Shown: positions 8,835-58,465 of the stretch, in pieces | Layout: each line of letters begins with the position of its first letter | Numbering within the stretch: the first letter of the stretch is position 1 | DNA from: an uncultured Thermoleophilia bacterium | GTDB lineage: Bacteria; Actinomycetota; Thermoleophilia; Gaiellales; Gaiellaceae | Length of the DNA: 64,000 nucleotides | Assembly (NCBI GenBank): GCA_963819905.1 | Contig: CAWFXP010000001.1 | Location: 146,426-210,425 of the forward strand | Direction: 5' to 3' | Translations under genes and position numbers: made by a program | Notes under the pieces: generated by a model | Seen by the model: only the letters and a program-made list of their open reading frames with translations | The model's database searches: none | What the model was told of the DNA's origin: nothing

Positions 8835-8836
8835 TC

Positions 8837-29238: not shown

Positions 29239-30155
29239 TCAGGCGGGGAAGGACGACGGCTCGTCGCAGGCGCGGCGCCAGAGGTCGTCGTCGATGTTGC
29301 GGCCGGTCACGACGAGGACGATCGGCCCCTCGACATCGCTGAGCTCGGCAAGCGCCGCGAGCGCCGCTCCGGGGGCGCCCTCGACGCGGATGCCAGCCCG
29401 CGCGTAGGCACCGACCGCCTCGGCGATTGCCCGCTCGGAGACGAGGACCATCCGCGAGACCACCTCGCCGAGCACCTCGACGGCCAGAGGAACGGCGACC
29501 CGAACCGCGAGGCCGTCAGCGAAGGTGTCGGCGCGGTCGGAGGTCACGATCTCGCCGGCCCGCCAGCACTCGACCATCACCGAGGCTTGCGCCGACTGGA
29601 CTCCGATTCGCTGCGTGGACGGCGCGTGCTCGCAGAGCTCCAGGCCGATGCCGCCGAGGAGCGCGCCGTTGCCGAGCGGGACGACCACCGCTGCGGGCGG
29701 CGCCTCGAGCTGGGCCAGGATCTCGGCTGCGATCGCCCGGTAGGCCTGGAACTGGAGCCACTCGGCGCCGTCCTCGAACAGCGGCAGCCCCTCGTCCGCA
29801 GCAAAGGCGGCCGCCGCGGCCTTGGCCTGGTCGAAGTCCGACCCGGTGAGCCGGATCTCGGCCCCGTGGCGCTCGATCAGCTCGAGCTTGGCCCGAGCCG
29901 CGCCGGGAGGCGCGAACACGATCGCCCGCACGCCGGCCCGGGACGCGGCCCACGCCGTCGCGGCCCCGTGGTTGCCGGTCGACGCGGTGACCACCGCCAC
30001 CGCGCCTGCGTCGCGGTAGGCCTCGATCACGGGCAGCGCGCCGCGCCACTTGAAGGCGCCGAGCTCGTGGACGTCCTCGCGCTTCAGGAACACGTCGCTC
30101 CGGGCGCCTGCGATCTCTGCCAGGGGCCGGCTCGAGCGGCGTGGGCGGTGTCACG
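29239..30155 (-). pseudogene. PLP-dependent enzyme of the threonine dehydratase / Trp-synthase-beta fold, with an apparent frameshift at about 30124-30131
   Basis: GTG 30155 gives VTPPTPLEP in one frame. LAEIAGARSDVFLKREDVHELGAFKWRGA...STGNHG follows in the next frame. Confidence 0.7.
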
Positions 30156-30159
30156 CCGT

Positions 30160-30705
30160 TCAGGCCGTCAGGTCGACGAGCCCGCTCGGCCGCGACCACA
30201 TCTCGTCCGCATAGGTGACGGACGCGCGGGACAGGTTGCCGCGGTCGTCGTAGCTGTAGAAGCCCATCCGCCAGAGCGCCGGCGAGTAGAGGTGCAGAGA
30301 GACCGCCGGCGGGCCGCCCGGGTTGCGCACGCAGTGGATCCGGGCGGCGTCGAAGTCGAAGACAGTGCCGGCCGGGTGGCGATGGCTCACCTGCCGGATC
30401 GCGCCGTTCTCGAGGAGCAGGCGGTCCTCGGCGAGCTCGCCGTCCACGACGTAGACCGCACCGCAGGACGTGTCGTGGTCGTGGAAGCCTGTGTCCTGCT
30501 CGCGGTCCCAGCAGATGAGCCAGACGTCGAGGTGGACGTCGCGGTAGAGCTCCGAGTAGACGCGCTCGTCGGGGTCGTGCTTGACCAGCTCGCTCCAGAG
30601 GTCTCGCTCGCGGCCGAGCTCGACGGCCAACTCGGCGAGGAAGGCCTGCCCGAGGTCCTCGTTGCCGGGCAGCCGCTCGGCGATCCAGGTCGAGACGTCG
30701 CTCAC
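30160..30705 (-). CDS. Cysteine dioxygenase type I-like cupin
   Basis: FHDHD...GxxxxE...IHCVRN three-His cupin arrangement, size about 180 aa. Confidence 0.65.
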   Translation of the reverse strand: MSDVSTWIAERLPGNEDLGQAFLAELAVELGRERDLWSELVKHDPDERVYSELYRDVHLDVWLICWDREQDTGFHDHDTSCGAVYVVDGELAEDRLLLENGAIRQVSHRHPAGTVFDFDAARIHCVRNPGGPPAVSLHLYSPALWRMGFYSYDDRGNLSRASVTYADEMWSRPSGLVDLTA

Positions 30706-31568
30706 ACCGCCGATCGTACTCCCTCGAGCAAGCGCCGCGGATTCTCGTTAAGGACCATGGTCGCCACGGCATCGCCGAAGCCCCGGATCGCGGCGAGCGT
30801 GGGCGCCGGATCGATCACCGGGACGTCGCTCCCGTGGACGAGCTGGGTGACCCCGTAGGTGGCGAGGCAGAGGTCGAGCGCCCGCCGTCCGTACGACGAC
30901 GTGTCGAGGAAGACGTTCGGGTGCATCGCGGCCCGGTCGTCCACGCCGCGCGAGCGCATCCGTTCGAGCTGGATCGGCGCACCGCCGGCGAGGATCGCGA
31001 AGACCACGGGCAGGTCGGCGAACCGCGTGGCGTCGCGCGCGAGCCACGTGGCATAGGCGGCCTGCATCTGCGCGCTGTAGTCGACGACCGCGCCCCACCA
31101 GGGCGGCGCGTCGCCCGGGAGCTCGCGCGGCGGGCCCGGGTGCACGAACAGGAGCTGGCGCGCCGCGCGGAGCTCCCCGAGCAGTGGGTCGATTCCGCCG
31201 ACGAGCTCCCCTGCTGCGACGCAGGCGCCGGCGAACCCGGGCCGACAGACCCCGGCGGCGAGCGCCTGGATCCGGCCGGACGCCGATCCGACGAGCTCGA
31301 GCGCGCCGGTGTGATACGCGTCTGCGAGCTCCCCCTCGGGATCCGTCAGGTACCCGGGCGGCACCGAGACCAGGGCGACGTCGATCCCGTGACGATCGAG
31401 CAGCGCCAGGCGGGTATCGAGATCGTGGTCGCCGAGGTCGATCTCCGAGTCGAGCTCGCCCGGAAGCCGAAGCACGCGCCCGTCGAGGCGCGGCGGCTCG
31501 CGTCGCCCGGCGAGCGCAGCCGTGAACGCCTCCGGCCAGAGATGCTGATGGACGTCGAACGCCGGCAC
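30702..31568 (-). CDS. Amidohydrolase-2 family metal-dependent hydrolase/decarboxylase
   Basis: FDVHQHLWP N-terminal HxH motif, ...FVHPG..., ...LVHGSDVP; GTG start lies 5 nt after the ppa stop. Confidence 0.75.
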   Translation of the reverse strand: MPAFDVHQHLWPEAFTAALAGRREPPRLDGRVLRLPGELDSEIDLGDHDLDTRLALLDRHGIDVALVSVPPGYLTDPEGELADAYHTGALELVGSASGRIQALAAGVCRPGFAGACVAAGELVGGIDPLLGELRAARQLLFVHPGPPRELPGDAPPWWGAVVDYSAQMQAAYATWLARDATRFADLPVVFAILAGGAPIQLERMRSRGVDDRAAMHPNVFLDTSSYGRRALDLCLATYGVTQLVHGSDVPVIDPAPTLAAIRGFGDAVATMVLNENPRRLLEGVRSAV

Positions 31569-31573
31569 GGCGG

Positions 31574-32074
31574 CTAGCCGTCGTGCAGGGTTCCGCCGAG
31601 CCGGGTCCGCGCTGCCGCGATCGTCGTCATCGCCTCCGCCCGGTTCCCGAAGCCGCGCGTCGACGTCTTCTTCTTCTCGAGCTCCTTGTAGACCTGGAAG
31701 AAGTGCTCGATCTCGTCGCGAAACTCCGGCTGGAGGTCGTGGATGTCGTGGACGCGACTCCATGCGGGGTCTCGCAGGGACGCGCAGAGGATCTTCTCGT
31801 CGGAGCCCTTCTCGTCTGTCATGTAGAAGACGCCGATCGGGCGCACGCGGATGCGGCAGCCGGGAAAGGTCGGGTCGCCGACGAGGACGAGGGCGTCCAG
31901 CGGGTCGCCGTCCTCGCCGAGCGTCCCCTCGATGTAGCCGTAATCGGCCGGGTAGGTCATCGACGTGAACAGGCGCCGGTCGAGCACGATGCCGCCCAGC
32001 CCGGGATCGAACTCGTACTTGTTCCGCGATCCGGCCGGTATCTCGACGAAGACCACGATCTCGGGCTCGGTCAT
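31574..32074 (-). CDS. ppa: Inorganic pyrophosphatase (family I)
   Basis: EIPAGSRNKYEFD...YPADYGYI..TLGEDGDPLDALVL...DEKGSDEKI; TATCCT lies 7 nt upstream of the ATG. Confidence 0.95.
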   Translation of the reverse strand: MTEPEIVVFVEIPAGSRNKYEFDPGLGGIVLDRRLFTSMTYPADYGYIEGTLGEDGDPLDALVLVGDPTFPGCRIRVRPIGVFYMTDEKGSDEKILCASLRDPAWSRVHDIHDLQPEFRDEIEHFFQVYKELEKKKTSTRGFGNRAEAMTTIAAARTRLGGTLHDG

Positions 32075-32174: not shown

Positions 32175-33311
32175 TCACGACGCCGGGGCCCCGGCGAGAT
32201 CCCGGTCGAGCACCACGATCGTCCGGGCCCCTTCCCCGCGGCGCAGGCGGGCGAAGGCCTCGTCGATCCCGTCCAGGTCGGTGAAGTGCGAGACGACGTC
32301 GGCGATCTCGAGATCCCCGTCCGCCGCCAGCTCGGCCAGCCTGCTGATCTCAGCCGCCGGGTTGCCCGAGCCGTAGAACGAGCCGCGCAGTGACTTCTCC
32401 GAGAGGAAGTCGACCGCCGGCACGGACGCGTCGACACCGACCGGCGCGAGGCCGACGACGGTGGCCGTCGCGCCGGGGCGGAGCGTGTCCCAGGCGAGCC
32501 GGATCGTCTCCGCCCGTCCGACGACCTCGAAGGCGTGGTCGACGCCACCCGCGGTCAGCCTGCGAACCGCGCGGGCGGCGTCCGGCTCCGACGCGTCGAC
32601 GCCGTGTGTCGCGCCGCGGGCCTCGGCGAGCGCGAGCTTCTCCGCCACGCGGTCGACGGCGACTATCGGCCCGGCCCCCGCGAGGCGCGCCGCGGCGACG
32701 ACCTGGAGCCCGACACCGCCGCAGCCGACGACGCAGACGCTCTCCCCCGGCGCCACCCCGGCGGCGTTGCGAACGGCGCCGAACCCGGTGACTACCGCAC
32801 AGCCGATGAGCGAGGCCTGCCAGAGCGCCAACCCGTCGGGAATCGGCACCGCCGATGCGGCCGGGACGACGCAGTGCTCGGCGAAGCAGGCGATCCCGAG
32901 AAAGCTCTTGAGCTCGACGCCGTCACGAGCCGCTATCCGGAGGCGACCGTCGAGCGCGGTTCCCGCGAACGTCGCCCGCGAGTTGGTCTCGCAGAGGTTG
33001 CTGCGCCCCTCGCGGCAGCGGCGGCAGGCGCCGCACGCAGGCAGAAAGCAGAGTGCGACGCGGGTGCCGGGGGAGAGGTCGGGGACCCCGGCGCCCACCT
33101 GCTCGACGACACCGGCGCCCTCGTGGCCGAGCACCACCGGGAAGCGGTTCCCGCTCAGATGCCCGTCCGCGCAATGGAGATCCGAATGGCAGACACCCGC
33201 CGCCGCGAGGCGCACCAGCACCTCGCCGGGCCCGGGCGCGGCGAGGACGACGGGCTCGATCGACGCCGGTGCCTCCGGTTCGCGGAACACCGCCGCTCGC
33301 GTCTCGGTCAC
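32175..33311 (-). CDS. Zn-dependent alcohol dehydrogenase, class III-like
   Basis: GVCHSDLH, GHEGAGVV, the structural Zn cluster CGACRRCREGRSNLC, and GCGGVGL. Confidence 0.85.
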   Translation of the reverse strand: MTETRAAVFREPEAPASIEPVVLAAPGPGEVLVRLAAAGVCHSDLHCADGHLSGNRFPVVLGHEGAGVVEQVGAGVPDLSPGTRVALCFLPACGACRRCREGRSNLCETNSRATFAGTALDGRLRIAARDGVELKSFLGIACFAEHCVVPAASAVPIPDGLALWQASLIGCAVVTGFGAVRNAAGVAPGESVCVVGCGGVGLQVVAAARLAGAGPIVAVDRVAEKLALAEARGATHGVDASEPDAARAVRRLTAGGVDHAFEVVGRAETIRLAWDTLRPGATATVVGLAPVGVDASVPAVDFLSEKSLRGSFYGSGNPAAEISRLAELAADGDLEIADVVSHFTDLDGIDEAFARLRRGEGARTIVVLDRDLAGAPAS

Positions 33312-33315
33312 CCGG

Positions 33316-34425
33316 TCACCCGACCCGGAACGCCTCGAGCGCGTCGAGGTCGGGGGTTACGCCGAGGCCGGGACCGGGCGGCGGCGCGATCGTGCCGTCG
33401 GGAGCGATCTCGAGCGGGGCCGGGAGAATGGAGTCACGCCGCTCCGGGGTCCAGGCCGGCGGGTCGAGCGGCACCTCGAGGTAGGGACAGGTCGAGACGG
33501 CGAGCGCGAGGTGGAGGTTGGCGAGCAGCCCGTAGCCGTTCGTCCACGTGTGTGGCGAGAAGCTCCGCCCGCAGAGATCGGCCAGATCGGCGATCCGTCG
33601 GCAACCGGACAGCCCGCCGGCGAGCACGACGTCGGGTTGAACCACGTCGACCCCGCCGCGGAGGATCAGGTCGCGCGCCTCCGACAGGTGACGAACCATC
33701 TCCCCGGCCGCGATCCGAAGGGTCGTGCGCCGGCGAAGCTGCGCATAGCCGTCGAGGTCGTCGGTCCGCAGCGGCTCCTCGAGCCAGAAGACGCCGAGCC
33801 GCTCGAGCTCCGCCGCGCAGCGGCTCGCCGTGGCGAGATCCCAGCGCGGCGCCCGATCGCCGGGCATCCGCCAGCCGTGGTTCGCGTCGACCATGATCTC
33901 GAGCTCAGGGCCGGCGGCGTCTCGAACCTGCTCGACGAGCTCGACGTCGCGGCGCCAGTCGTCGTCCTGGAAGCGGAGCTTGATCGCCCTGACGCCCGCG
34001 GCGCGCAGGGCGACGGCGCGGCGCGCCCGCTCCTCCGCTCCGACGGGCTCGCCGCTCGAGGCGTACGCGAGGATGCGATCCGAGCGACCGCCGAGCAGGC
34101 GCCAGAGCGGCTGGTCGAGCGCACGCCCGACGAGGTCCCACACGGCCACCTCGGCCGTCCACGGGCGCCCGCCGTGGAAGTCGACGGTCTCGCAGACCTC
34201 CCGGACGACCTCCGTCCGGAAGGGATCGACCCCGACCAGGTGGCGCTCGAGCTCCGCCGCGTCAGGCAAGTGGTCGCCGCTCGCGTAGCCGCAGAGGCCC
34301 TCGTCCGAGTGGATGGTGACGAGGGTGGCCTGCAGCGCGGTTCGAGGCACGGGATCCCAGGCGGCCCGAAAGGGGGGATCGAGTGGAAACGCGTAGCGTC
34401 GCGTCTCGATACCCGAGATTCGCAC
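33316..34425 (-). CDS. Enolase-superfamily enzyme (mandelate racemase / acid-sugar dehydratase-like)
   Basis: Metal ligands in IMVDANHGW, WLEEP and IAAGEM; a possible His/Asp dyad in VQPD ... SPHTW. Confidence 0.85.
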   Translation of the reverse strand: MRISGIETRRYAFPLDPPFRAAWDPVPRTALQATLVTIHSDEGLCGYASGDHLPDAAELERHLVGVDPFRTEVVREVCETVDFHGGRPWTAEVAVWDLVGRALDQPLWRLLGGRSDRILAYASSGEPVGAEERARRAVALRAAGVRAIKLRFQDDDWRRDVELVEQVRDAAGPELEIMVDANHGWRMPGDRAPRWDLATASRCAAELERLGVFWLEEPLRTDDLDGYAQLRRRTTLRIAAGEMVRHLSEARDLILRGGVDVVQPDVVLAGGLSGCRRIADLADLCGRSFSPHTWTNGYGLLANLHLALAVSTCPYLEVPLDPPAWTPERRDSILPAPLEIAPDGTIAPPPGPGLGVTPDLDALEAFRVG

Positions 34426-34950
34426 TCAGCCGCCTCGGTAGTAGGCGTTCGCGGCCTCGTCGCGTCTCGCGGCGAGGGCCAGGACGTCGTCTCCCGTCGG
34501 CGGCTCGAGCGCGTCGGCGACCGCGGCGCGCGTCGCCTCGCGGTTCGCGTGGCGCACCGCCGTCTCGTCGTCGACGGCCGGGTCGACCCAGACCGCGACG
34601 AGGCAAACCAGCTCGGCCGCCTCGGCGGCGCCGAGCAGCCCGTCGTGCACGGCGTCGAGCATGCCCTGTGCGATCCCGAGCTGGGCCGCGCCCCAGGTGA
34701 TGCGCTCGTGCTCCGATCCGCGCTCGAGCGTCGCCTTGTTGACGACGATCGTCAGCGGCCGGACGACGGTTCCCGGGGTCAGGCAGGCGAGAAAGGGAAC
34801 ATGGCCCGGCCTCCCGGTGCCGAGGAGAGCCGCCAGCGCGGCCGACGTGGGAGATCCCCTCCGGGCGAGGGCGACGTTGATGTGGCTTCCGTTCGGCACC
34901 TCGCCGGACCACGCCTCACCGATCCGGCCGTCGAGAGCGTCATCCATCAT
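34426..34950 (-). CDS. fae: Formaldehyde-activating enzyme (Fae) family protein
   Basis: By recalled comparison it aligns along its length with Methylobacterium Fae: IGEA..G....HI......RGSP, GH, NK.T, GAAQ.G.A....DAV..G, L.V.V.W, N.EAT..A. AAAGGA precedes the ATGATG start. Confidence 0.8.
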   Translation of the reverse strand: MMDDALDGRIGEAWSGEVPNGSHINVALARRGSPTSAALAALLGTGRPGHVPFLACLTPGTVVRPLTIVVNKATLERGSEHERITWGAAQLGIAQGMLDAVHDGLLGAAEAAELVCLVAVWVDPAVDDETAVRHANREATRAAVADALEPPTGDDVLALAARRDEAANAYYRGG

Positions 34951-36064
34951 GGTCCTTTCGGTCGAGTTCGAGCACGACACGGAGCGCCGTCCCCGATTGC
35001 ATCAGCTCGAACGCCTCCGCCACCGCCTCGAGCGGCAGCCGGTGCGAGATCAGGCGATCGAGCGGCAGGCGCCCGCTGCGGTAGAGCTCGAGGATCGCGG
35101 GAAAGTCGCGCTCGGGCTTCGACGAGCCGTAGATCGAGCCGAGCACGCGTCGCTCGCCGCGCGGGATCTGGAGCGCCGGCAGCGTGACCACGGCGTCCGC
35201 CCGCGGAATGCCGATCAGGACGGCCGCTCCCCGCGCCCGGCACGCGAGGAAGGCGGCGAGAGCGGCCTCGGGCCGGCCGGTCGCCTCGAGCGCGTAGTCG
35301 ACCCCGCCGCCGCTGACCTCGCGCACGCGCTCGGCCGTCGACTCCGCGTCGCCGGTCCACGCGACGGTCGCGGTCGCGCCGAGGCTTGCCGCCTCGGCGA
35401 GCTTCGCCGCGGCGACGTCGACGGCGACGACGGGCTCGGCTCCGGCGGCGAGCGCGGCCAGGAGCGCCGAGAGGCCGACACCGCCGCAGCCGATGACGCA
35501 GACCCGGTCCCCCGGGCGCACGCCCGCTGTCCGCCAGACGGCGCCGACCCCGGTCGCGATCGCGCAGCCGACGAGCGAGGCGACGTCGGCGGGGACGTCG
35601 TCCGGGATCGGGATGCACGAGCGCTCTGCCACGACGGCGTGGTCGGCGAAGGTCGAGAGGAGCGAGTAGTGATAGACGGGCAGGCCGTTGCGCGACAGGC
35701 GCGGGGTGCCGTCGAGGAGGCCTCCGTGACCCATCGCGCTCCAGGCCGTGCGGCAGAGATGCGGCAGGTCGCGCAGGCACTCCTCGCAGGCGCCGCACCA
35801 GGGAAGCCAGGAAAGGGCGACTCGCGTCCCCGGTCGGAGCGACACGTCCGGCCCGATTGCCTCGACGACTCCGGCGCCCTCGTGGCCGAGAACGGCGGGG
35901 CAGCGCGTCTCTGCCGTACCGTCGATCGCGTTCAGGTCGGAGTGGCACACACCGCTCGCCTCCAGGCGGACGAGCACCTCGCCTGGCCCTGGCGCCGCGA
36001 GGTCGAGCTCCGTGACCTCGAGCGGCGCCCCGGTCGCGGGCAGCACCGCTCCGCGAATCCTCAC
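34940..36064 (-). CDS. Zn-dependent alcohol dehydrogenase (second paralogue)
   Basis: GVCHSDLN, GHEGAGVV, CGACEECLRDLPHLC, GCGGVGL; GTGA overlap with the upstream ATPase gene. Confidence 0.85.
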   Translation of the reverse strand: MRIRGAVLPATGAPLEVTELDLAAPGPGEVLVRLEASGVCHSDLNAIDGTAETRCPAVLGHEGAGVVEAIGPDVSLRPGTRVALSWLPWCGACEECLRDLPHLCRTAWSAMGHGGLLDGTPRLSRNGLPVYHYSLLSTFADHAVVAERSCIPIPDDVPADVASLVGCAIATGVGAVWRTAGVRPGDRVCVIGCGGVGLSALLAALAAGAEPVVAVDVAAAKLAEAASLGATATVAWTGDAESTAERVREVSGGGVDYALEATGRPEAALAAFLACRARGAAVLIGIPRADAVVTLPALQIPRGERRVLGSIYGSSKPERDFPAILELYRSGRLPLDRLISHRLPLEAVAEAFELMQSGTALRVVLELDRKDHDG

Positions 36065-38119
36065 GTGCCGGCCTCCGCGCGGGTCTCGACCGCTTCGTCG
36101 GCCGGGAGCGCCTGCAGCCGCCGGAGCTCGTCGATCGGGATGTGGCAGCGCATCATGTGGCCGGGCTCGACCTCGGCGAGCGGGGGCTCCTCGGTTTCGC
36201 AGATCTCGCCGACTTTTCGCGGGCAGCGGGTGTGGAAGACGCAGCCGGACGGAGGGTCGGCCGCGCTCGGGATCTCGCCCTCGAGCCGGATCCGGAGCCC
36301 CTCCTCGCCGTCGAGCTTGGGCACGGCGGACAGGAGCGCTTCGGTGTAGGGGTGGTGCGGCCCCGAGAACACGCGCTCGGCGCCGCCCAGCTCCATCAGC
36401 CGGCCGAGGTAGAGAACCGCGATCCGGTCGGACAGGTAGCGGACGACTCCGAGGTCGTGCGAGATGAAGACGTACGCGGTGCGGTCGTCGCGCTGCAGTT
36501 CGGCGAGCAGGTTGAGGATCGCCGCCTGCACCGAGACGTCGAGCGCGGAGGTGGGCTCGTCGCAGACGACGACCTCGGGGCTGCCCGCGAACGCGCGCGC
36601 GATGGCCACTCGCTGCTTCAGGCCTCCCGAGAGCGAGGTCGGCCGAACGGTCAGGTACCGGTCGGCGAGCCGGACGGAGCGGGTGAGCTCGACGAGGCGC
36701 TCGTCGCGCGCCTTGCCTTTCAGGCCGCCGAGACGCGTCAGGGCGCGGCCCACGATCCGCCGCACGGTGTGGCGCTGGTTGAGGGCGGAGTCGGGGTTCT
36801 GGAAGACGATCTGGATCGCCCGGATCTCCTGCCGTCCACGCTTCGAGATCGTCTCGCCGAGAGGCCTTCCGTCGAGCTCGAGCGTCGAGTCCGCATCCGG
36901 TGCCGTGATGCCGAGGAGCACGCGGGCGAACGTGGTCTTGCCGCTGCCCGACTCGCCGACGACGCCGAGCGTCTCGCCCGGCCAGACGTCGACGCTGACG
37001 TCCGAGAGCGCGTGGATCCGGTGCCCGGCCTGCCGGAACGTCTTCGACACGGCTTCCGCGCGGATGATCGGAGTCGTCGCGCGATCGAGCTTCGACGGCG
37101 CTCCGAGCTCCTCCGGGATGACGCGCGGGATCGACTGGGCGCGCTCGTGGTAGTAGCAGCGGCTCGAGCGGTTTCCGAGATCGTACGGCGGCGGCTCCTC
37201 GGCGCGGCAGCGGTCGTCGGCGAGCGCGCAGCGGTCTGCGAACACGCAGCCCGGCAGGTCGGCCCCCGGCGAGGGCAGGAAGCCGGGGATCGTGTCGAGC
37301 CGTCCGTGGTCCTTCCGCCGGCCGCCGCGCGGGATGCAGCGGAGGAGGCCGACGGTGTACGGGTGCCGGGGGTCGTCGAACAGCGCCCGGGCCGGGCCCT
37401 CCTCGACCAGCGTGCCGGCGTAGAGCACCCCCACGCGGTCGCACATCTTCGCGATGACCGCGAGGTTGTGCGAGATGAAGAGGACGCTCGTCCCGAACTC
37501 CTGGCGGAGGTTGAGGACGAGCTCGAGCACCTCCGCCTCGACGGTCGCGTCGAGGCCCGTCGTCGGCTCGTCGAGGATGAGGAGCGTCGGGTCCTTCGCC
37601 AGCGCCATGGCGATGAGGATCCGCTGCTGCATGCCGCCCGAGAGCTGGTGCGGATAGCGCTGCATGACCGACGCCGGGTCGGCGATCTGCACCTTGCGCA
37701 GCATCCCCTCGGCCCTCGTCGCCGCCTCCGCTGCGCTCGCTCCTCCGATCGCGTACGCCTCGGCGAGCTGTTTCCCGACCCGAATCGAGGGGTTCAGGGC
37801 TCGTCCGGGATCCTGGTAGACCATGGAGACGCTCTTCGCCCGCAGGTCGCGAAGCTGCGACGCACCCATCGCGAGGACGTCCCGGCCGCCGACGCTGATG
37901 TGCGCCCTGGCGTACACGCCCGTTGCGCGCGAGGTACCCGACGATGGCGAACGCCGCGGTCGACTTGCCGCAACCCGACTCGCCGACGAGCCCGTAGCTC
38001 TCGCCCTGCCCGATGTGGAACGTCAGGCCGCGGATCACCTGCCGGTCGTGGCCGCGGATCCGGTAGGCGACGTCGAGATCGACGACGTCGAGGGCGTTGG
38101 CCGTCGTCTCGGCGCTCAC
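36061..38119 (-). pseudogene. Fused double ABC ATPase (DppD/DppF-like), with an apparent frameshift near 37918-37925
   Basis: The first Walker A (GESGCGKST) is in one frame. The rest is in the next frame: LSGGMQQR, DEPTTGLD, a second GESGSGKTT, LSGGLKQR and DEPTSALD. Confidence 0.85.
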
Positions 38120-38988
38120 CGGTCGACCACCGCCTGAATGCCGTCCGCGACGAGGTTGACGGCCACGGCCAGCGACGCGATCGCGAGCGCCGGGAACAGA
38201 GTCGGCCACCAGATGTTCCCGGAGATGAGACCGTAGTTCTCCGCGATCTGGAGGCCCCAGTCAGGAGACGGCGGCTGGATGCCGAAGCCGAGAAACGAGA
38301 GCGTCGCGACGGCGAAGATCGCGTAGCCGAGGCGGACCGTGAACTCGACGATGATCGGGGGCAGGACGTTCGGCAGGATCTCGACGAACATGACGTGGGG
38401 CGCCCGCTCACCTCGCAGCCGGGCGGCGGATACGTAGTCGAGCTCGCGCTCGCTCAGCACCGTCGAACGAACGGTTCGCGCGATGATCGGGGCGAAGACG
38501 ATGCCGATCACGACGATGACGGTCCAGCTCGACGGGCCGAGCGCCGTGATGACGAGCAGCGCGAGCACGATCAGCGGGATCGCGAGGAACGCATCGACGA
38601 TCCGGGAGAGCGTGTCGTCGACGAAGCCGCGGAAGTAGCCCATCACGAGGCCGAACGCCGTCCCGAGGGCGGTGCCGAGGATGGTGGCGAGCAGCGCGAC
38701 GACGATGATGCTGCGCGCGCCGACGATCACCCGCGACAGGACGTCTCGGCCGAGCTGGTCGGTCCCGAGCCAGTGCTCACCGGAGGGAGCCTGGAGAATC
38801 TCGGGGCTCGGGGCGAGGTAGTCGTACGGCGCGAACAGCGTGCCGAAGATCGCGCACACGACCCACCAGAGGACGATCAGCGAGCCGACGAGGAACGTCG
38901 GCGAGCGCCAGAGCGCGCGCAGGGTCTCGCGGCGAGCGATCCTGACCTCGCTCCGGTCCGGAGCGGATGGGGTGGCCGCCGTCGTCAT
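38116..38988 (-). CDS. ABC transporter permease (DppC/OppC-like)
   Basis: HWLGTDQLGRDVLSR and an EAA-like loop; ATGA/GTGA overlaps on both sides. Confidence 0.85.
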   Translation of the reverse strand: MTTAATPSAPDRSEVRIARRETLRALWRSPTFLVGSLIVLWWVVCAIFGTLFAPYDYLAPSPEILQAPSGEHWLGTDQLGRDVLSRVIVGARSIIVVALLATILGTALGTAFGLVMGYFRGFVDDTLSRIVDAFLAIPLIVLALLVITALGPSSWTVIVVIGIVFAPIIARTVRSTVLSERELDYVSAARLRGERAPHVMFVEILPNVLPPIIVEFTVRLGYAIFAVATLSFLGFGIQPPSPDWGLQIAENYGLISGNIWWPTLFPALAIASLAVAVNLVADGIQAVVDR

Positions 38989-39938
38989 TCGCGGGCTCCG
39001 TAGCGGATGCGGGGATTCAGCACCGAGTAGAGGAGGTCTGCGATCAGCGTTGCGGCGATGTAGACGAGCGCCACGGTGAGAACGCCCGACTGGAGAACCG
39101 GGAAGTCCTTCTTGCGGGCGGCGTCGTAGATCAGGCGTCCGATGCCGTTGTAGTTGAAGAGGAGCTCGATCGCGACGAGCCCGCCGATCAGGTACCCCAG
39201 CTGGACGGCGATCACCGTGATCGTCGGAAGAAGCGAGTTCCGAAGCACGTGCCGGCGCACGACGGTTGTCCGCGGGAGGCCCTTGAGAACGGCGGTGCGC
39301 GTGTAGTCGGAATCGAGCGAGGCCACCGTGCCCGCACGCGCCATCCGTGCGATGTACCCGAACAGGACCGCGCACAGCGCGAGCGCCGGCAGCAGGAGGT
39401 ACTTGACCTGGGTGAAGACGCCGCTGCCCTGTGGGGCCGTGGCCGTGATCGGGAGCCACTCGAGCCAGATACCGAAGACCATGATCAGGACGATGCCGGT
39501 GACGAACTCCGGCACCGTCGACAGGGAGAGGCCGGTTACCGTGATGAACCGGTCAGCCGGACGGTTCAGATGCAGCGCGGCGAACACGCCCCCGATGATG
39601 CTCAGGGGGACGACGATCACGAAGGCGACGGCGGCCAGCTTGAGCGAGTTGACCAGCGCGTCGCCGATCAGGTCCGAGACCGGCGTCTTGAACACGTACG
39701 ACGTGCCCATGTCGCCCTGCATGAAACCGCTGAACCAGTCCCAGTAGCGCGTCAGGAGCGGGTCGTAGTACCCGAGCTCCTCGTTCAGGGCCACGACCAC
39801 GGCGTTGTCGGCGAACGGCCCCAGGATCGCCCTTCCTGGGTTGCCGGGCAGGACCTGTGCACCGACGAAGACGATCACGCTCACGAGCCACAGCGTGATG
39901 AGTGCGAGGCCGAGTCGGCGGAGAATGAAGCGGGTCAC
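38985..39938 (-). CDS. ABC transporter permease (DppB/OppB-like)
   Basis: MTRFILRRL... N-terminus typical of the family, 6 TM segments. Confidence 0.9.
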   Translation of the reverse strand: MTRFILRRLGLALITLWLVSVIVFVGAQVLPGNPGRAILGPFADNAVVVALNEELGYYDPLLTRYWDWFSGFMQGDMGTSYVFKTPVSDLIGDALVNSLKLAAVAFVIVVPLSIIGGVFAALHLNRPADRFITVTGLSLSTVPEFVTGIVLIMVFGIWLEWLPITATAPQGSGVFTQVKYLLLPALALCAVLFGYIARMARAGTVASLDSDYTRTAVLKGLPRTTVVRRHVLRNSLLPTITVIAVQLGYLIGGLVAIELLFNYNGIGRLIYDAARKKDFPVLQSGVLTVALVYIAATLIADLLYSVLNPRIRYGARE

Positions 39939-39996
39939 GGCCGGGCTGCGGCCGGGCGTCGGTGGGGGCTCCCCGGCCGACGCCCGGCCGTTCGAC

Positions 39997-41736
39997 TCAT
40001 GCGGTGATCGAGGCCTGGTCGAGGAAGATCTGACCGACGGCCGTGTTCACGACGCCGCTGACGTTCGATCCGAGGGCCGAGAGGAAGTTGTAGAAGTAGG
40101 CAAAGATGATCGGCGTCTCGTCGAGCAGCAGCGTCTGGATCTGACCCGCGATCTGCTGCTGGGTCTGGAGGTCGGCCGTTGCGATGAACTGAGGGACGAG
40201 CGCGTCGTACTCGCTGTTCTTGAAGTGCGCGGCGTTCCACGTTCCCTCGGATAGGAGCGGGGCAGACAGGAGCGTGTTCGGCACGCTGCGGTGTGCGTAG
40301 TCGACGAGGCTCATGATCGAGTCCAGCCACGGTGACGATCCGAAGACGCCGTCGCCGTAGTAGGTCCCGAGATCCTGGACGACGAGGTCGATCTCGACCC
40401 CGATCTCCCTCGCCGCGGCCTGGACGAGCTGGGCGTACTGCGGTACCTCGACCGTCTTGGCGACGTTCATCTGCGTCTTGAAGCCGTTGGGATACCCGGC
40501 ATCCGTCAGGAGCTGCTTCGCCTGCTCGAGATCCTGCGCCCGCTGCGGGACCGACGTGTCCGTCTGCGGGTAGAAAGGCGCCAGCGGGCTGTCGTTGCCG
40601 AGGTCGGCGAGACCCTTCCAGAGCGTCTCGATGATCGCCGGCCGGTCGAGCGTCAGCGCGATCGCCTGGCGCACCCGCTTGTCGTCGAACGGCTTCATGT
40701 CGGTCCGCATCGAGAGCTGCCGGTGAGGCGTGCCTATTGCCTTGAGGACGGTGAAGCTCTCGGGGTCAGCGAGGATGGCCTGTCCTCCCACGGCCCCGAA
40801 CTGGTCGATTGCGTCGATCTGCTTGCCGACGAGCGCGAGGATGTGGGCCTGCTCGTCCTCGTAGTAGGTGACCTCGACGGCGTCCAGAGGCGGAGCCGGG
40901 CCCCAGTAGGTCGGGTTCCGCGCCAGGCTTGCACCGACCTTCGGCGTGTACGCAGTCCGCGTGAACGGACCCGTGCCGATGAACGTGTTGTCCCAGTCCG
41001 CCGGGTCGTAGTTCTCCGGAAGGATGATCAGGTTGTAGTTGTCGGAGGAGACGATGTTCGGGAATCCGTAATTCGGCGCATCGAGGGTGAACACCACGGT
41101 CGTGTCGTCGCTCGCGACGGCGTTTCCCGGTGTGAGGACGCCGCCGAGCGCGGAGAGCGCGTTCCCCTTGTTGGCCGGATCGGCATGCAGGTTGAAGGTG
41201 TAGGCGACGTCCTTCGCGGTCATCGGCGTCGCCGCCTCGTCGTTGAACGTGACACCCTGGCGGATCGTGAACGTCCACTCGCTCAGGTCGTCGTTCGGAG
41301 ACCAGCTTTCGGCGAGCTGAGGCTGGACCTCGGCTTCGCCGAGCGACAGCGTGAGGAACTGGCCCGTCAACGCGTTCATGACGAGACCGCCCTGATCGAG
41401 AATCGTGACCGGGTTGAGCGTCCCGGCGGGCGTCGTCGACCCGAGCCGGAACGTACCGCCGGTAGCCGGTGGCGCCGTCTCGGCCGGAGCGCCGGTGTCG
41501 GCGGGAGCACCCGTGTCGGCCGGCGCCGTCGTCTCGCCGCCGGCGTCGCCGTCGCCGCCGCCGCCGCACGCGGCGGCCAGGAAGGCGACCATCGGGATCG
41601 ACATGCCGATGACGGTGCCGCGGCGCACAAAGTCGCGCCGACTGAGCCTGCCGGCCGCGTACTCGTCGATGATGTGGTTCTCGACCTCGCTCCGCTCCTT
41701 GCGGATCTCGTCGACCTTTCGCTGGGTCTCGTCCAT
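39997..41736 (-). CDS. ABC substrate-binding lipoprotein, family 5 (peptide/nickel/opine type), Tat signal
   Basis: SRRDFVRRG twin-arginine motif, lipobox LAAAC, a PADTGA repeat linker, family-5 fold length. Confidence 0.9.
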   Translation of the reverse strand: MDETQRKVDEIRKERSEVENHIIDEYAAGRLSRRDFVRRGTVIGMSIPMVAFLAAACGGGGDGDAGGETTAPADTGAPADTGAPAETAPPATGGTFRLGSTTPAGTLNPVTILDQGGLVMNALTGQFLTLSLGEAEVQPQLAESWSPNDDLSEWTFTIRQGVTFNDEAATPMTAKDVAYTFNLHADPANKGNALSALGGVLTPGNAVASDDTTVVFTLDAPNYGFPNIVSSDNYNLIILPENYDPADWDNTFIGTGPFTRTAYTPKVGASLARNPTYWGPAPPLDAVEVTYYEDEQAHILALVGKQIDAIDQFGAVGGQAILADPESFTVLKAIGTPHRQLSMRTDMKPFDDKRVRQAIALTLDRPAIIETLWKGLADLGNDSPLAPFYPQTDTSVPQRAQDLEQAKQLLTDAGYPNGFKTQMNVAKTVEVPQYAQLVQAAAREIGVEIDLVVQDLGTYYGDGVFGSSPWLDSIMSLVDYAHRSVPNTLLSAPLLSEGTWNAAHFKNSEYDALVPQFIATADLQTQQQIAGQIQTLLLDETPIIFAYFYNFLSALGSNVSGVVNTAVGQIFLDQASITA

Positions 41737-41865: not shown

Positions 41866-42553
41866 CTAGACCGGCCAGGCCTCCTTCCGGTGGCCCATGT
41901 CCCAGAACATCCACTCGTAGCGCGACGCCTGGACGAAGATCTCGCGGGCCCGCTCGCGATCGGTCGCCGAAAGCGTCGCGCCGAGGCGGTCGGTCAGCTC
42001 GAGCCACTCGCGCATGCCCTGCGCGTACTCCTCGCCTCCGTACGTCTCGATCCAGCGCCGGTAGGCGGGGTCGGGCGATCCGCGCGACAGGAGCTCCTTG
42101 CCGACCTCCCAGTAGATCCAGCCGCAGGGGAGCACGGCCGCCACCGCGTCGGCGTAGCTGCCGTTCTGCACGATCCGAAGCAGGTAGCTCGTGTACGCGA
42201 GGTTCGTCGGAGCCGGCTGCGCGGCGTCGACCTCGGCCGCGTCGATTCCGAGCTCCGCGAGCAATTCCTCGTGCAGCGTCGCGTTCCGCCGCGATGGCCG
42301 TCAGGGCGCTGCGCGTGAACACCTCGGTGTCGGCCTGCTCGGGGGCCCGGGCCCCCGTGACGGCGAGCGCCTTCGCGTAGTCACGCAGGTAGAGGCTGTC
42401 CTGCACGACGTAGAAACGGAACGCGTCCCGGTCGAGGGTCCCGTCCGTCAGCCCGCCCAGGAAAGGGTGGTCGAGGATGGCCGCATAGATCCCGCCGATC
42501 GACGACCAGAGATCCTGGGTGAGCGCTCCCCGCCCCGTTGCCACGCTCGCCAT
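41866..42553 (-). pseudogene. tenA: TenA/thiaminase II-like protein, with an apparent +1 at about 42277
   Basis: The N-terminus (HPFLGGLTDGTLDRDAFRFYVVQDSLYL) is in one frame. LHEELLAELGID...CGWIYWEVG...RYEWMFWD is in the next frame. Confidence 0.75.
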
Positions 42554-42640: not shown

Positions 42641-43801
42641 ATGCGCGTGAAGGACGTCCGTGCGACGGCCGTCAACGTCCCGATGGTGGCGCCCTACCGG
42701 TTCGCGTTCGGCTCCCTCGCGAGCTTCACGACGACGGTCGTGGAGGTCGAGGACGAGGACGGCGTCGTCGGTATCGGAGAGAGCCCGCACGGCGACCTGG
42801 CTCGCGAGGTGGAGGTGCTCGGCGCGGCGCTGGCGGGGACGCGAATCGACGACCTGAACGGCTGCGAGGCGCGCGTCCTCTCGCGAACGGGGTTCTCGCC
42901 GTGGTCGCAGGACGCGACCGCGCGCCGTGCCTTCGGCGGTATCGAGATCGCGCTCTGGGATCTCAGAGCGCGGCGTGAAGGACGCCCGCTCGTCGAGCTG
43001 CTCGGCGGCCGAGTGCGCGACGAGGTCGCCTTCACGGAATACTTCGCGCTGCGCCACGGCGCCGAGGAGACGCCAGAGGCCGTGGTCGCCTACTGCGAGC
43101 AGATGGCGGCCGAGCACGGCTCCCCGTGGTTCGAGGGCAAGCTCGGCGTGCTCGACGTGGCGGAGGAGTTGGCGATGGTCGGCGCCCTCTCGGAATGCCT
43201 CGGCCAGCGCCTCCTCAGGCTCGACGCAAACGGCGCCTTCACCGTGCCGACGGCGCGTCGCGTCGTCGCGGCGCTCGCCCGTCTCGGCATCCCTTGGCTC
43301 GAGGATCCCTGCCGGACGCTCGACGAGGTCGCCCGACTGCGTGCCGACGGCCATCCGGTCTCCTTCTCGACGCACGAGCCCGAGCTCGCACGGGCTGCCC
43401 GCACCGGTGTCCCCGACGCGTTCTGCCTCGACGCGGCAGAGCTCGGCGGCATCCGGCGAACGCAGGACTTCCTCCGGGCCTGCGAGGCGATCGGGATCGA
43501 CTTCTGGTGCTACAGCGGCGACGCCGGGGTCATGACCGCGGCGTACCTGCACCTGACCGCGAGCGAGCCCTCGCTGATCCATCCCCATCAGGCGCTCTTC
43601 CGCTTCACCGCCGACGTGGTGGTCGACCGTGGCCACTACGCCCCGAAGGACGGTCTCCTCTCCGTTCCCGACGGCCCGGGTCTCGGGATGGACCTCGACC
43701 GCTCGGCCCTTGCCCGGATGCACGAGCGCTACCGCTCCGAAGGCGCGATGCCGACCGGCTTTCCGGGCGAGCGGTCCGGCGGCGGCTTTCGCCGGCGGTG
43801 A
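42641..43801 (+). CDS. Enolase-superfamily enzyme (second paralogue)
   Basis: RLDANGAF, WLEDP and an N-terminal capping domain; about 386 aa. Confidence 0.8.
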   Translation: MRVKDVRATAVNVPMVAPYRFAFGSLASFTTTVVEVEDEDGVVGIGESPHGDLAREVEVLGAALAGTRIDDLNGCEARVLSRTGFSPWSQDATARRAFGGIEIALWDLRARREGRPLVELLGGRVRDEVAFTEYFALRHGAEETPEAVVAYCEQMAAEHGSPWFEGKLGVLDVAEELAMVGALSECLGQRLLRLDANGAFTVPTARRVVAALARLGIPWLEDPCRTLDEVARLRADGHPVSFSTHEPELARAARTGVPDAFCLDAAELGGIRRTQDFLRACEAIGIDFWCYSGDAGVMTAAYLHLTASEPSLIHPHQALFRFTADVVVDRGHYAPKDGLLSVPDGPGLGMDLDRSALARMHERYRSEGAMPTGFPGERSGGGFRRR

Positions 43802-45055: not shown

Positions 45056-46132
45056 GTGATCGACTGCGATATCCATCCGCAGCTCGGCAACGTGGACGAG
45101 TTCCTCGGCTACGTCGAGCCGGCCCAGCGCGAGTGGTTTCGGCTCCAGGGGCCGACGCTCGGCCTTCCCGGCTATCCCTGGAACCACCCGAGCTCCTTCT
45201 TCCGGCAGGACCTCGAGCACGGGGAGGCGCTCCCGCCGGGCTCGACCGCGGCCGAGGTCGTCCGCGACCTGCTCGACCCGTACGACATCGACGTGGGCGT
45301 CCTGAACGGCGACGACGCGATCTACCTCTCGCTCGTCGCCAGCCCCTACCGGGCGACCGAGTTCGCGCGCGCCCACAACGAGTGGATCCGGGAACGGTGG
45401 CTCGACGCCGACCCGCGCCTGCGCGGCGGTATCGTCTGCGCGGTCCAGGATCCGCTGGCGGCCGCATCCGAGATCAGACGGGTGGCGCAGGACCCACGCT
45501 TCGTCCATGTCGTCCTCGTCGGAGGGTCGGAGCGGCCGTACGGGGAGCCACGCTATCTGCCGATCTTCGAGGCGGCTGCCGAGTGCGGCCTTCCGATCGC
45601 AATTCACTCCGGCGGCGAGGGCATGGGGCTGGCCGCGCCCCCCGGCGGTGCCGGGATGCCGACCTTCTACATCGAGTGGCACACCCTGGGCTCCGCCGGA
45701 AGCATCATGGCGCACCTCGTGTCGCTCATCTGCCACGGCGTCTTCGAGCGGCTTCCCTCCCTCAAGGTCCTCTTACTCGAGGGCGGTCTCGCCTGGCTTC
45801 CCGGGATCCTCTGGCGGCTCGACACCAACTGGCGGGCGCTGCGGCTCGACACGCCGTGGCTCGAGCGCAAGCCGAGCGAGGTAGCCCGCGAGCACGTGAA
45901 GTTCACGACCCAGCCGCTCGAGCACACCGACGGCCACGACGAGCTGCTCTTCCAGATGCTCGAGGCGGCAGGAGCGCCGGACAACCTCTGCTTCGCCTCC
46001 GACTACCCGCACTGGGACGGAGACGATCCTGCGTACATGCTCAAGCGGCTGCCAGAGACGTGGCGCGAGCGGGTCATGAGCGGGAGCGCCGCCGAGCTCT
46101 ACGGCGAGCGGCTCGGCCTCGTCGCGGCGTGA
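45056..46132 (+). CDS. Amidohydrolase-2 family protein (ACMSD/LigW-like)
   Basis: IDCDIHP N-terminus, IAIHSGG, ...FASDYPHWD C-terminal metal motif. Confidence 0.8.
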   Translation: MIDCDIHPQLGNVDEFLGYVEPAQREWFRLQGPTLGLPGYPWNHPSSFFRQDLEHGEALPPGSTAAEVVRDLLDPYDIDVGVLNGDDAIYLSLVASPYRATEFARAHNEWIRERWLDADPRLRGGIVCAVQDPLAAASEIRRVAQDPRFVHVVLVGGSERPYGEPRYLPIFEAAAECGLPIAIHSGGEGMGLAAPPGGAGMPTFYIEWHTLGSAGSIMAHLVSLICHGVFERLPSLKVLLLEGGLAWLPGILWRLDTNWRALRLDTPWLERKPSEVAREHVKFTTQPLEHTDGHDELLFQMLEAAGAPDNLCFASDYPHWDGDDPAYMLKRLPETWRERVMSGSAAELYGERLGLVAA

Positions 46133-55290: not shown

Positions 55291-55354
55291 TACGTTCGCT
55301 CTCGTCCGGAGGGGAGCGCCTTTTCCGGCGCAAGGTTTAGCATTCCCCAGCCTG

Positions 55355-55364
55355 TAATGCATTA
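55355..55364. promoter_or_regulatory. Perfect 10-bp palindrome TAATGCATTA in an AT-rich divergent control region; candidate GntR operator
   Basis: Read directly; embedded in TGTAATGCATTATAC (GT-N10-AC); lies between the divergent E1 and SDR genes. Confidence 0.3.
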
Positions 55365-55491
55365 TACGGAGTATCTTGCATCTAAATGAGCATATGGTAT
55401 TCTCCTCGGCCGTGTTTGAGAGTCGATCCCGCCCGATCGGCCACGCCGGCAAGAACAGCCCCGTGTCGTCGCCTGGAAGGGCACCAGGGTC

Positions 55492-56283: not shown

Positions 56284-56317
56284 CGGGAGCTGTCCTCGAC
56301 CCGAAAGGAACGACGGC

Positions 56318-57561: not shown

Positions 57562-57609
57562 CGACCGACGGAGCCACAGACAGATGTCATCTGAAACGAG
57601 GAGGTCGAC

Positions 57610-58446: not shown

Positions 58447-58465
58447 AATTCGTCTGAGTGGCATG

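Follow-up and report, generated by a model that had tools for sequence, protein, structure and literature searches.

A Fae-like protein encoded with an enolase-superfamily enzyme, two zinc alcohol dehydrogenases and a peptide/opine-type importer in soil Thermoleophilia

The formaldehyde-activating enzyme (Fae) is regarded as a hallmark marker of formaldehyde oxidation linked to tetrahydromethanopterin (H4MPT), such that surveys read its homologues as potential for one-carbon (C1) metabolism or formaldehyde detoxification, with JGI automatic annotation naming them '5,6,7,8-tetrahydromethanopterin hydro-lyase'. In a methanol stable isotope probing study, 12 metagenome-assembled genomes (MAGs) carried a formaldehyde-activating enzyme gene and no other methylotrophy gene (PMC10994693), and methylotrophs possess the distant paralogues Fae2 and Fae3, of unknown function, mutants of which show no C1 growth defect (PMC5023235). 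Here, a stretch of 64,000 nucleotides (nt) from an uncultured Thermoleophilia bacterium of the Gaiellaceae (GenBank assembly GCA_963819905.1, contig CAWFXP010000001.1, positions 146,426 to 210,425 of the forward strand; G+C about 71%), hereafter the window, is described in which a Fae-like gene lies in an operon of eight genes, with a PepT-type importer encoded together with two zinc-dependent alcohol dehydrogenases (ADHs) and an enolase-superfamily enzyme of the MR/MLE type. All of these proteins fall in known superfamilies, and as an operon the arrangement is ordinary. What appears to be new is that the genes of a populous Fae subfamily lie in a non-C1 context and that, in soil Thermoleophilia, its members are in fixed pairing with two Zn-ADHs and an enolase-superfamily enzyme. 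The literature searched yielded no description of a pathway so composed, in agreement with the original prediction made for this DNA, and the cluster points to a catabolic pathway for handling aldehydes that would be undescribed.

The eight genes were predicted to run co-directionally along the minus strand from 41736 to 32175 of the window, limits that were confirmed, and the domain calls were upheld for each of the eight by Pfam profile search. From upstream to downstream the operon comprises:

39997-41736, minus strand: gene for a family-5 solute-binding protein (SBP) (Pfam SBP_bac_5, E 6e-69)
39939-39996, minus strand: intercistronic hairpin in the 58-nt gap between the SBP and permease 1 genes (RNA fold)
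38985-39938, minus strand: ABC permease 1, DppB/OppB-like (Pfam BPD_transp_1 and BPD_transp_1_N)
38116-38988, minus strand: ABC permease 2, DppC/OppC-like (Pfam BPD_transp_1 and OppC_N)
36061-38119, minus strand: fused double ABC ATPase of the DppD-DppF type (two ABC_tran and two oligo_HPY domains by Pfam in the repaired protein)
34940-36064, minus strand: Zn-dependent medium-chain ADH, here ADH2 (Pfam ADH_N and ADH_zinc_N)
34426-34950, minus strand: Fae-like protein of 174 amino acids (aa) (Pfam PF08714, E 4.7e-36)
33316-34425, minus strand: enolase-superfamily (MR/MLE) enzyme (Pfam MR_MLE_C, E 3.8e-60)
32175-33311, minus strand: Zn-dependent ADH, here ADH1 (Pfam)

Scanning one genome per species gave 80 related loci, nearly all from MAGs of Solirubrobacterales, Gaiellales and Thermoleophilaceae and almost entirely from soil, with a few in bins labelled Chloroflexota, Acidobacteriota and Eisenbacteria. 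Among named relatives the closest is L004, an uncultured Thermoleophilia MAG whose cluster proteins share 71-88% identity with those of the window, bar a partly recovered SBP. When the eight proteins were used in tblastn, the order SBP-permease-permease-ATPase-ADH-Fae-like-MR/MLE-ADH was found in most loci, down to 47% Fae identity, with the order ABC importer-ADH-Fae-like-MR/MLE-ADH present in about 70 Thermoleophilia MAG loci. Among those of the 80 loci with enough flank, 71 of 75 have an MR/MLE gene at most 400 nt downstream of the Fae-like gene, 65 of 69 have a Zn-ADH gene at most 400 nt upstream of it and 57 of 62 have an ABC importer encoded upstream in the same direction, an arrangement far above chance; a second ADH comes after the MR/MLE gene in 45 of 71. 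Six of the genes (SBP, permease 1, ADH2, Fae-like, MR/MLE and ADH1; permease 2 and the ATPase were left out) have dN/dS values of 0.09-0.26 against their orthologues in L002 and are under purifying selection, the Fae-like gene being the least constrained of the six (0.26).

The junctions between the genes were described originally as tight, which holds for six of the seven. The stop codon of permease 1 and the ATG of permease 2 overlap in ATGA, while the overlaps at both ends of the ATPase gene (permease 2 with ATPase, and ATPase stop with the GTG start of ADH2) take the form GTGA. Between the ADH2 stop and the Fae-like start there is an overlap of 11 nt, the Fae-like stop adjoins the MR/MLE start with a gap of 0 nt, and 4 nt separate the MR/MLE and ADH1 genes. 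The seventh junction, between the SBP and permease 1 genes, departs from the description, with a gap of 58 nt that is the sole sizeable one in the operon and holds the hairpin, with a 14-bp GC-rich stem (dG -45.3 kcal/mol, z -4.56, equalled by 0 of 200 shuffles). Hairpins between SBP and permease genes are frequent in binding-protein-dependent transporter operons. On the 3' side of ADH1 there is a GC-rich palindrome and a 100-nt gap, the fold of which is not significant (z -1.5). No internal promoter- or terminator-like site was found on the coding strand by a consensus scan, one not tuned for high-GC actinobacteria. The claim that the eight genes would act as one functional unit is well supported, because the gene order is conserved down to 47% Fae identity, stop and start codons overlap and dN/dS lies at the values given above.

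The ATPase was likewise only partly as predicted, the domains of a fused double ATPase being present but not in a single intact open reading frame (ORF), with one extra A at about 37901 shifting the frame. Directly upstream of the SBP gene a TenA/THI-4/PQQC-family gene (41866-42553, minus strand) is similarly split, by a 1-nt insertion at 42277; this gene is intact (228 aa) in contig L084 and, as a companion of the cluster, is restricted to the closest relatives (4 loci). The two ORFs broken by 1-nt insertions could mark a decaying, non-functional locus in which the operon is being lost, but such decay is highly improbable. A metagenomic contig 97% identical to the window (L084) has neither insertion and has its own break elsewhere in the ATPase gene, and the two differ by 42 indel runs, mostly single-base, over 10.7 kb. 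Intact ATPase orthologues of 686 aa are encoded in L001 and L002, the other seven genes of the operon are all intact ORFs, the six genes for which dN/dS was calculated are constrained as described, and the related loci come from long-read soil MAGs, some with comparably fragmented genes. Because L084 has no insertion at this position and because of the indel runs between the two contigs, the ATPase frameshift most likely reflects long-read assembly noise rather than a pseudogene, a reading that was dropped after the comparison with L084. The break in the TenA-like gene is likewise read as noise.

The Fae of Methylorubrum extorquens AM1 (EC 4.2.1.147; structures 1Y5Y/1Y60; TIGR03126; PF08714) shares its fold and length with the Fae-like protein of the window, from which it differs in gene context, the latter being encoded between Zn-ADH and enolase-family genes without H4MPT-pathway neighbours. 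Against TIGR03126, the NCBIfam equivalog model for Fae, the Fae-like protein scores 102.2 bits, below the cut-off of 118.05, and it is about 28-30% identical to the M. extorquens enzyme. The only significant structural matches of its AlphaFold (AF2) model (pLDDT 75) are 1Y60 and 1Y5Y (TM 0.72-0.79, E 1e-11, 28% identity). An exhaustive search put the Fae family at 584 clusters at 50% identity, in which the canonical representatives (including one Fae-Hps fusion) share 48-73% identity with M. extorquens Fae, and only about 30% with the window protein, and make up a tight clade of their own; in a neighbour-joining tree without bootstrap, from which Fae2 and Fae3 are absent, the window protein falls outside this clade. 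Fifteen representatives match it at E <= 1e-30, and those placed in the tree are all in the non-canonical group.

In the structure paper of 2005, His22 of Fae is reportedly the acid catalyst and Gln88 is said to flip its amide on pterin binding. Both groups retain G10-E11, His22, K/R63-P64, G85, Gln88 and D97, with His22 (H23 in the window clade) invariant there and Gln88 (Q90) nearly so. Relative to canonical Fae the window clade shows the switches L13W, D24N, F84W, P86A, F119W, H121D and W122P (N25, W86, A88, W121, D123 and P124 being the replacements in its own numbering), and a clade-specific Cys is conserved at Fae position V55. Asn24, Trp84 and Trp119 (Fae numbering) are common to non-canonical Fae-like proteins, including those of Bacillus, Streptomyces, Burkholderia and Ensifer. 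With the active-site core retained and neighbouring positions switched, a related chemistry on a different ligand is suggested. A Pfam scan of 38 ORFs of the window found no H4MPT-pathway gene, as had been claimed, and no H4MPT gene (mtdB, mch, fhc) or methanopterin biosynthesis gene was found in the annotated or sampled neighbourhoods of related loci. Because of its score below the cut-off, its separate clade, the residue switches and the lack of H4MPT neighbours, the original view that the protein would not be a canonical methylotroph Fae is supported, and it may be placed in a broad non-methylotrophic subfamily. Fae2 and Fae3 are likewise Fae-family proteins that do not serve formaldehyde activation for growth; unlike members of the window clade they occur in methylotrophs with a canonical Fae and the H4MPT pathway, and no context of ADH and enolase-family genes has been reported for them.

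Two further observations on the family were set aside. Apparent Fae-MR/MLE 'fusion' proteins (P0142, P0227, P0187 and P0165) gave only partial domain matches and were not used as evidence, being probably frameshift read-throughs of abutting genes in noisy assemblies, and the matches of a Fae-like profile to the N-termini of the MR/MLE structures 4DN1 (E 0.02) and 2NQL (E 0.56) were taken as chance.

Searching other phyla by tblastn of plasmids recovered Fae-like proteins 36-50% identical to that of the window. In Bacillus sp. F19 the Fae-like gene is found with genes for a BCCT transporter, a Zn-ADH (43% identical to ADH2) and an SSADH-type aldehyde dehydrogenase, the Fae-like gene and an IclR gene being divergent from these three. 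In Streptomyces clavuligerus the gene overlaps the SBP gene of an ABC system annotated as glycine-betaine type and is followed by genes for a HIBADH-like oxidoreductase, which shares 58% identity with its Thermoleophilia counterpart, and then for an SSADH. A plasmid of Streptomyces sp. NBC_01562 encodes an FGGY kinase, FAD oxidase, short-chain dehydrogenase/reductase (SDR), SSADH and IclR regulator, with the Fae-like protein, an oxidoreductase and an MFS transporter encoded divergently. Burkholderia sp. YI23 has Fae-like, aldo-keto reductase (AKR), SSADH and MFS genes, and Ensifer adhaerens has AKR, Fae-like, aldehyde dehydrogenase and LysR genes, followed by those of an importer with a family-5 SBP and a fused double ATPase. 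In metagenomic clades a Zn-ADH fragment overlaps the Fae-like start, an AKR gene lies just upstream or cyclic amidohydrolase genes flank the Fae-like gene. Across other clades and phyla the non-canonical Fae-like proteins are thus almost always accompanied by an NAD(P) oxidoreductase and an aldehyde dehydrogenase, their constant companions being NAD(P) alcohol or carbonyl oxidoreductases, aldehyde dehydrogenases, transporters and regulators rather than H4MPT enzymes.

The importer is of the PepT type (Opp/Dpp/opine) by Pfam, with a family-5 SBP, two BPD_transp_1 permeases, one of them with OppC_N, and an oligo_HPY ATPase, as in the Dpp, Gsi, AgaA-type (agropinic acid) and AccA importers, from which it differs in that both ATPases are fused in one protein of 686 aa. 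In translation the N-terminus of the SBP shows a lipobox (LAAAC) as well as a twin-arginine-like motif (SRRDFVRR). The protein is no more than a remote relation of binders with a known ligand, its best PDB relatives (E ~1e-30) being binders of glutathione, agropinic acid and dipeptides with an agrocinopine binder about equally remote, and all its NCBIfam scores lie at a quarter of the cut-offs or less, the best being nickel/NikA-type (143 bits against 600). Against L002 the SBP and permeases (38985-41736) show 92-94% aa identity with a dS of 0.3-0.55, and the enzyme genes 71-86% with a dS of 0.67-0.77, which hints at recombination or differing histories inside the operon.

ADH1 and ADH2 are paralogues, 44% identical, in both of which the catalytic zinc ligands (C, H, C) and a four-Cys structural site are visible, along with CHSD, GHEGAG, the Cys of 'GCA' and the NAD-type fingerprint GCGGVG...VAVD. 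The best NCBIfam model for both is TIGR03989, for ADHs dependent on N,N-dimethyl-4-nitrosoaniline (NDMA), at 289 bits for ADH2 and 305 for ADH1 against a cut-off of 440. On TIGR02818 (cut-off 544) and TIGR03451 (cut-off 513) ADH2 scores 266.5 and 279.2 bits, and ADH1 253.9 and 260.7, such that scores on the NDMA, mycothiol and glutathione formaldehyde-dehydrogenase models reach about half to two-thirds of the cut-offs. The PDB neighbours of both are liver-type and class III ADHs alike (E ~1e-68 for ADH2), and ADH2 has an additional Pfam match to Glu_dehyd_C, the glucose-dehydrogenase C-terminal domain. Only the last ADH of the operon had been predicted to be class-III-like, a distinction that fails, the two enzymes being equally so by NCBIfam scores. 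An activating-enzyme gene beside a class-III-type Zn-ADH is also seen with Gfa and glutathione-dependent formaldehyde dehydrogenase in Paracoccus and in the actinomycete mycothiol system (PMC8879981). The fold of Gfa is unrelated to the Fae-like one, the ADHs of the window match both TIGR03451 and TIGR02818 at only about half of the cut-offs, and the window cluster has two ADHs, an importer and an enolase-family enzyme, with no S-formyl-thiol hydrolase gene seen.

Around the conserved core lie accessory genes, variable in position and orientation. Amidohydro_2 genes were found in 36 loci and the CDO_I-like cupin genes that pair with them in 31, genes for HAL/PAL-family lyases in about 40, IclR genes in 22, genes for HIBADH-like dehydrogenases in 16 and OCD/mu-crystallin genes in 14, mostly beside a HAL-like gene. 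An accessory aldehyde dehydrogenase is encoded in 24 loci, its best models being PuuC and betaine-aldehyde dehydrogenase (BADH), both below the cut-off. Homocysteine S-methyltransferase-family genes occur in 18 loci, MttB-family genes in 7, genes for DAO-family flavoproteins in 5 and MetE-like genes in 4 and in the window. In L083 the importer, ADH2, Fae-like, MR/MLE, MttB-like, Amidohydro_2, CDO-like, aldehyde dehydrogenase and HAL-like genes are all co-directional. Other loci vary the core itself. In L065 the place of both ADHs, immediately upstream of the Fae-like gene, is taken by DAO and amine oxidase genes (7386-10522), and ADH2 is immediately preceded by a DAO gene in L025, L029, L043 and L044. 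An aldehyde dehydrogenase gene directly follows MR/MLE in the slot of ADH1 in L034, L059 and L075-L080, a position suggesting that the two enzymes may be functionally equivalent there. In L069 and L037 genes for a KduD-like SDR, an FGGY kinase and a FAD-linked oxidase replace MR/MLE (10001-14300), this variant being orthologous to the set of Streptomyces sp. NBC_01562 at 53-70% identity, and in L077 the Fae-like gene is followed by a dihydropyrimidinase-like amidohydrolase gene (10001-11796). One Gaiellaceae MAG (MFD05747.bin.2.112) holds two copies of the ADH-Fae-like-MR/MLE core, L029 and L051, with differing accessory genes, which suggests paralogous clusters for related substrates.

Several of these neighbours would suit a pterin-dependent route, in which an imported methylated amine or betaine is N-demethylated oxidatively, the formaldehyde so released is condensed with H4MPT or tetrahydrofolate and the C1 unit passes to a pterin-bound pool. 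The Fae fold with its invariant His22 and nearly invariant Gln88 would fit such a role, as would the DAO and amine oxidase genes of L065, the DAO genes of the four further loci, the MttB-family, homocysteine S-methyltransferase and MetE-like genes counted above and the betaine-type and BCCT transporters beside the Fae-like gene in S. clavuligerus and Bacillus; HAL-like lyases that lack the methylideneimidazolone (MIO) triad would by their mechanism suit a trimethylammonium leaving group. Even so this route is unlikely. The core cluster has no demethylase, DAO is confined to about 5 of the 80 loci and in NCBIfam matches D-amino-acid dehydrogenase best, not sarcosine oxidase, no H4MPT or folate C1 gene was found in any neighbourhood examined, and the Fae-like protein falls under the Fae equivalog cut-off with several of its switches near the conserved His and Gln. 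The H4MPT pathway has also been reported as undetected in Amycolatopsis methanolica and Bacillus methanolicus (PMC8879981).

In the MR/MLE enzyme the metal ligands D180, E216 and E242, which align with 4GGB, and the dyad D265-H293 are invariant in 57 orthologues, with an invariant K149-x-R151 on strand 2 where the MR subgroup has K-x-K. Its best NCBIfam matches are TalrD/GalrD (129.6 bits against 500) and galactonate dehydratase (113 against 311), and its best PDB match is 4GGB/4HPN (E 4e-37), which we take to be the proposed galactarolactone cycloisomerase of Agrobacterium tumefaciens. In the oxidative uronate pathway of Agrobacterium, Udh is followed by Gli of the amidohydrolase superfamily, Gci of the enolase superfamily and KGSA dehydrogenase (KGSADH). 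Oxidation of a sugar acid, lactone or polyol along such an Udh-Gli-Gci-KGSADH route would have the ADHs acting on a polyol or hemiacetal, the amidohydrolase on a lactone, the enolase-family enzyme in dehydration or ring opening and the Fae-like protein on an open-chain aldo-sugar or glycosylamine. The combination of dehydrogenase, Amidohydro-type, MR/MLE and aldehyde dehydrogenase genes is shared with the uronate pathway, Amidohydro_2, aldehyde dehydrogenase, HIBADH-like and IclR genes recur around the cluster, and the top models of the MR/MLE enzyme are talarate/galactarate, arabinonate and galactonate dehydratases. Consistent with a sugar too are the Glu_dehyd_C match of ADH2, the KduD-like SDR, FGGY kinase and FAD oxidase of L069/L037 and Streptomyces NBC_01562 and the presence of sugars and sugar-opines among family-5 SBP ligands. 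All the sugar-enzyme matches however lie far under the family cut-offs, 4GGB/4HPN match only at E 4e-37 with K-x-R for K-x-K, Zn-ADHs stand in place of the SDR, the Amidohydro_2 protein has no detectable PDB relative and there is no KdgD-type enzyme or aldolase. The uronate pathway has no counterpart to the Fae-like protein or to the nitrogen-metabolism neighbours, among which the HAL-like, OCD-like, CDO-like, methyltransferase and amine-oxidase genes indicate a nitrogen compound, and the Fae fold is known in sugar metabolism only from archaeal Fae-Hps fusions. A sugar route of this kind is accordingly judged more doubtful than the pterin-dependent one and quite improbable.

It is tentatively proposed, at somewhat less than an even chance, that the operon serves the uptake and oxidative catabolism, by way of an aldehyde, of a small nitrogen compound bearing a carboxylate, for which an amino-alcohol, a betaine and an opine-like compound are candidates, with the Fae-like protein performing adduct chemistry. 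From the gene content, conservation and family assignments observed, we infer every one of the catalytic steps that follow. ADH2 would oxidise a hydroxyl of the imported substrate to an aldehyde. The Fae-like protein, modelled on the reaction of Fae between formaldehyde and the N5/N10 atoms of H4MPT, would promote the attack of a nitrogen (or sulphur) nucleophile on the carbonyl, an addition that also proceeds spontaneously, such that a carbinolamine, aminal or cyclic imine is made or broken, using the conserved His in a reaction in which H4MPT need not take part. ADH1 would act on the aldehyde or on its adduct, oxidising it to the acid level in the way that class III ADHs handle hemithioacetals, a step that may fall in other variants to the SSADH-like aldehyde dehydrogenase in its place, and the enolase-family enzyme would abstract a proton alpha to the substrate carboxylate, leading to epimerisation or beta-elimination. 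The order suggested originally, in which an aldehyde would be loaded and then oxidised by a class-III-like ADH, is consistent with the cross-phylum pairing of oxidoreductase and aldehyde dehydrogenase and with the aldehyde dehydrogenase in the ADH1 slot; formaldehyde as that aldehyde, and H4MPT or mycothiol as the carrier, draw no support from the data. A nitrogen compound is favoured because of the importer type, the amine oxidases replacing ADHs and the OCD-like, HAL-like and methyl-transfer neighbours, and a sugar-derived or glycated substrate stays in play because the affinities of the MR/MLE enzyme are sugar-like and one variant contains a kinase.

A number of observations weigh against oxidative catabolism of an amino-alcohol, betaine or opine-like compound. 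The window cluster itself has no aldehyde dehydrogenase, the best MR/MLE scores are with acid-sugar dehydratases and a proposed lactone cycloisomerase, and a sugar kinase is present in the L069/L037 variant, the last two fitting a sugar-derived substrate equally well. The accessory genes are heterogeneous, nearly all of the 80 loci come from one class such that the synteny may partly reflect inheritance, and the Fae-like proteins of other phyla are only 36-50% identical and have no MR/MLE partner. The catalytic His and the Gln that reportedly contacts the pterin are moreover conserved, so that a pterin could still be bound.

A parallel to the proposed route is found in modules that convert choline through betaine aldehyde to glycine betaine, in which an ADH and BADH are encoded beside Opu or BCCT transporters. 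The same pattern of transporter, ADH and aldehyde dehydrogenase occurs beside the Fae-like genes of Bacillus sp. F19 and S. clavuligerus, and on the BADH model, whose cut-off is 669, the aldehyde dehydrogenase of Thermoleophilia reaches 520 bits. Choline and betaine modules differ in having no Fae-like or enolase-family part, and the window in having a family-5 SBP importer and no aldehyde dehydrogenase. More speculatively, and with a lower likelihood than the route itself, much of the Fae family may be methanopterin-free, with the N24/W84/W119 subfamily performing a pterin-less amine-aldehyde chemistry beside ADHs and aldehyde dehydrogenases, and in soil Thermoleophilia recruited together with an MR/MLE enzyme and two Zn-ADHs into a new pathway whose imported substrate would be an amino-alcohol, betaine or opine-like compound.

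A different, undescribed role for this Fae subfamily is argued for because of its conserved genomic context, and 'fae' matches in soil metagenomes need not mean C1 metabolism. Solving the pathway would give a function to the whole Fae subfamily and a new substrate and pathway to uncultured Gaiellales and Solirubrobacterales, and metagenomic inference of C1 metabolism would be corrected. Cultured carriers open to genetics include Bacillus sp. F19, S. clavuligerus, Streptomyces sp. NBC_01562, Burkholderia/Caballeronia and E. adhaerens.

Genes on either side of the operon in the window include the following:

30160-30705, minus strand: CDO_I-like cupin gene (Pfam)
30702-31763, minus strand: Amidohydro_2 gene (Pfam)
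42641-43801, plus strand: second, MLE-like enolase-superfamily gene, divergent (Pfam MR_MLE_N and MR_MLE_C; homologues in 8 loci)
45056-46132, plus strand: second Amidohydro_2 gene
46626-48164, minus strand: HAL/PAL-family lyase paralogue (Pfam Lyase_aromatic, E 2e-114)
48050-49150, minus strand: short MetE-like (Meth_synt_2) gene
49275-50462, plus strand: ATP-grasp gene

Downstream of the operon the minus-strand genes of 29239-31763 encode the Amidohydro_2 protein, the CDO_I-like cupin and a threonine-dehydratase/EutB-like pyridoxal phosphate enzyme, and lie downstream of an inorganic pyrophosphatase gene; in L001 the Amidohydro_2 and cupin genes were called as a single fused product of 438 aa. 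The Amidohydro_2 protein was considered as a relative of lactone isomerases or lactonases, a candidacy dropped with no PDB relative at E <= 1e-3. Several of the genes beyond the other side of the operon (the second MR/MLE, Amidohydro_2, MetE-like and ATP-grasp genes) have homologues near the cluster elsewhere.

The HAL-like protein of the window has GSVGLADL without the Ala-Ser-Gly MIO triad and scores 343 bits on the hutH model against a cut-off of 539. The paralogues in about 40 loci mostly have no Ala-Ser-Gly either, the triad being kept only in a few beside OCD-like genes. Because of the missing triad and the scores below the hutH cut-offs, these MIO-less proteins are probably not ammonia-lyases. 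Catabolism of ergothioneine or hercynine was weighed on the basis of the MIO-less HAL-like lyases, the CDO-like cupin, the methyltransferases and a hydantoinase-like neighbour, with the ErtD model matched; it was set aside, the HAL-like proteins matching no ergothionase model and no urocanase-type gene being seen, and is kept only as a lead.

Chromosomal housekeeping genes occupy the left part of the window, encoding RecG, PlsX, SMC, FtsY, Ffh, TrmD and DprA. Towards the other end the G+C of 54000-60000 falls to 0.63-0.65, against about 0.71 elsewhere, in a region encoding a fused 2-oxoacid dehydrogenase E1 (53299-55911), a cupin/AraC-binding-domain protein, a GntR regulator, a xylose-isomerase-like TIM barrel and a formamidase/acetamidase-family fragment (58543-59322).

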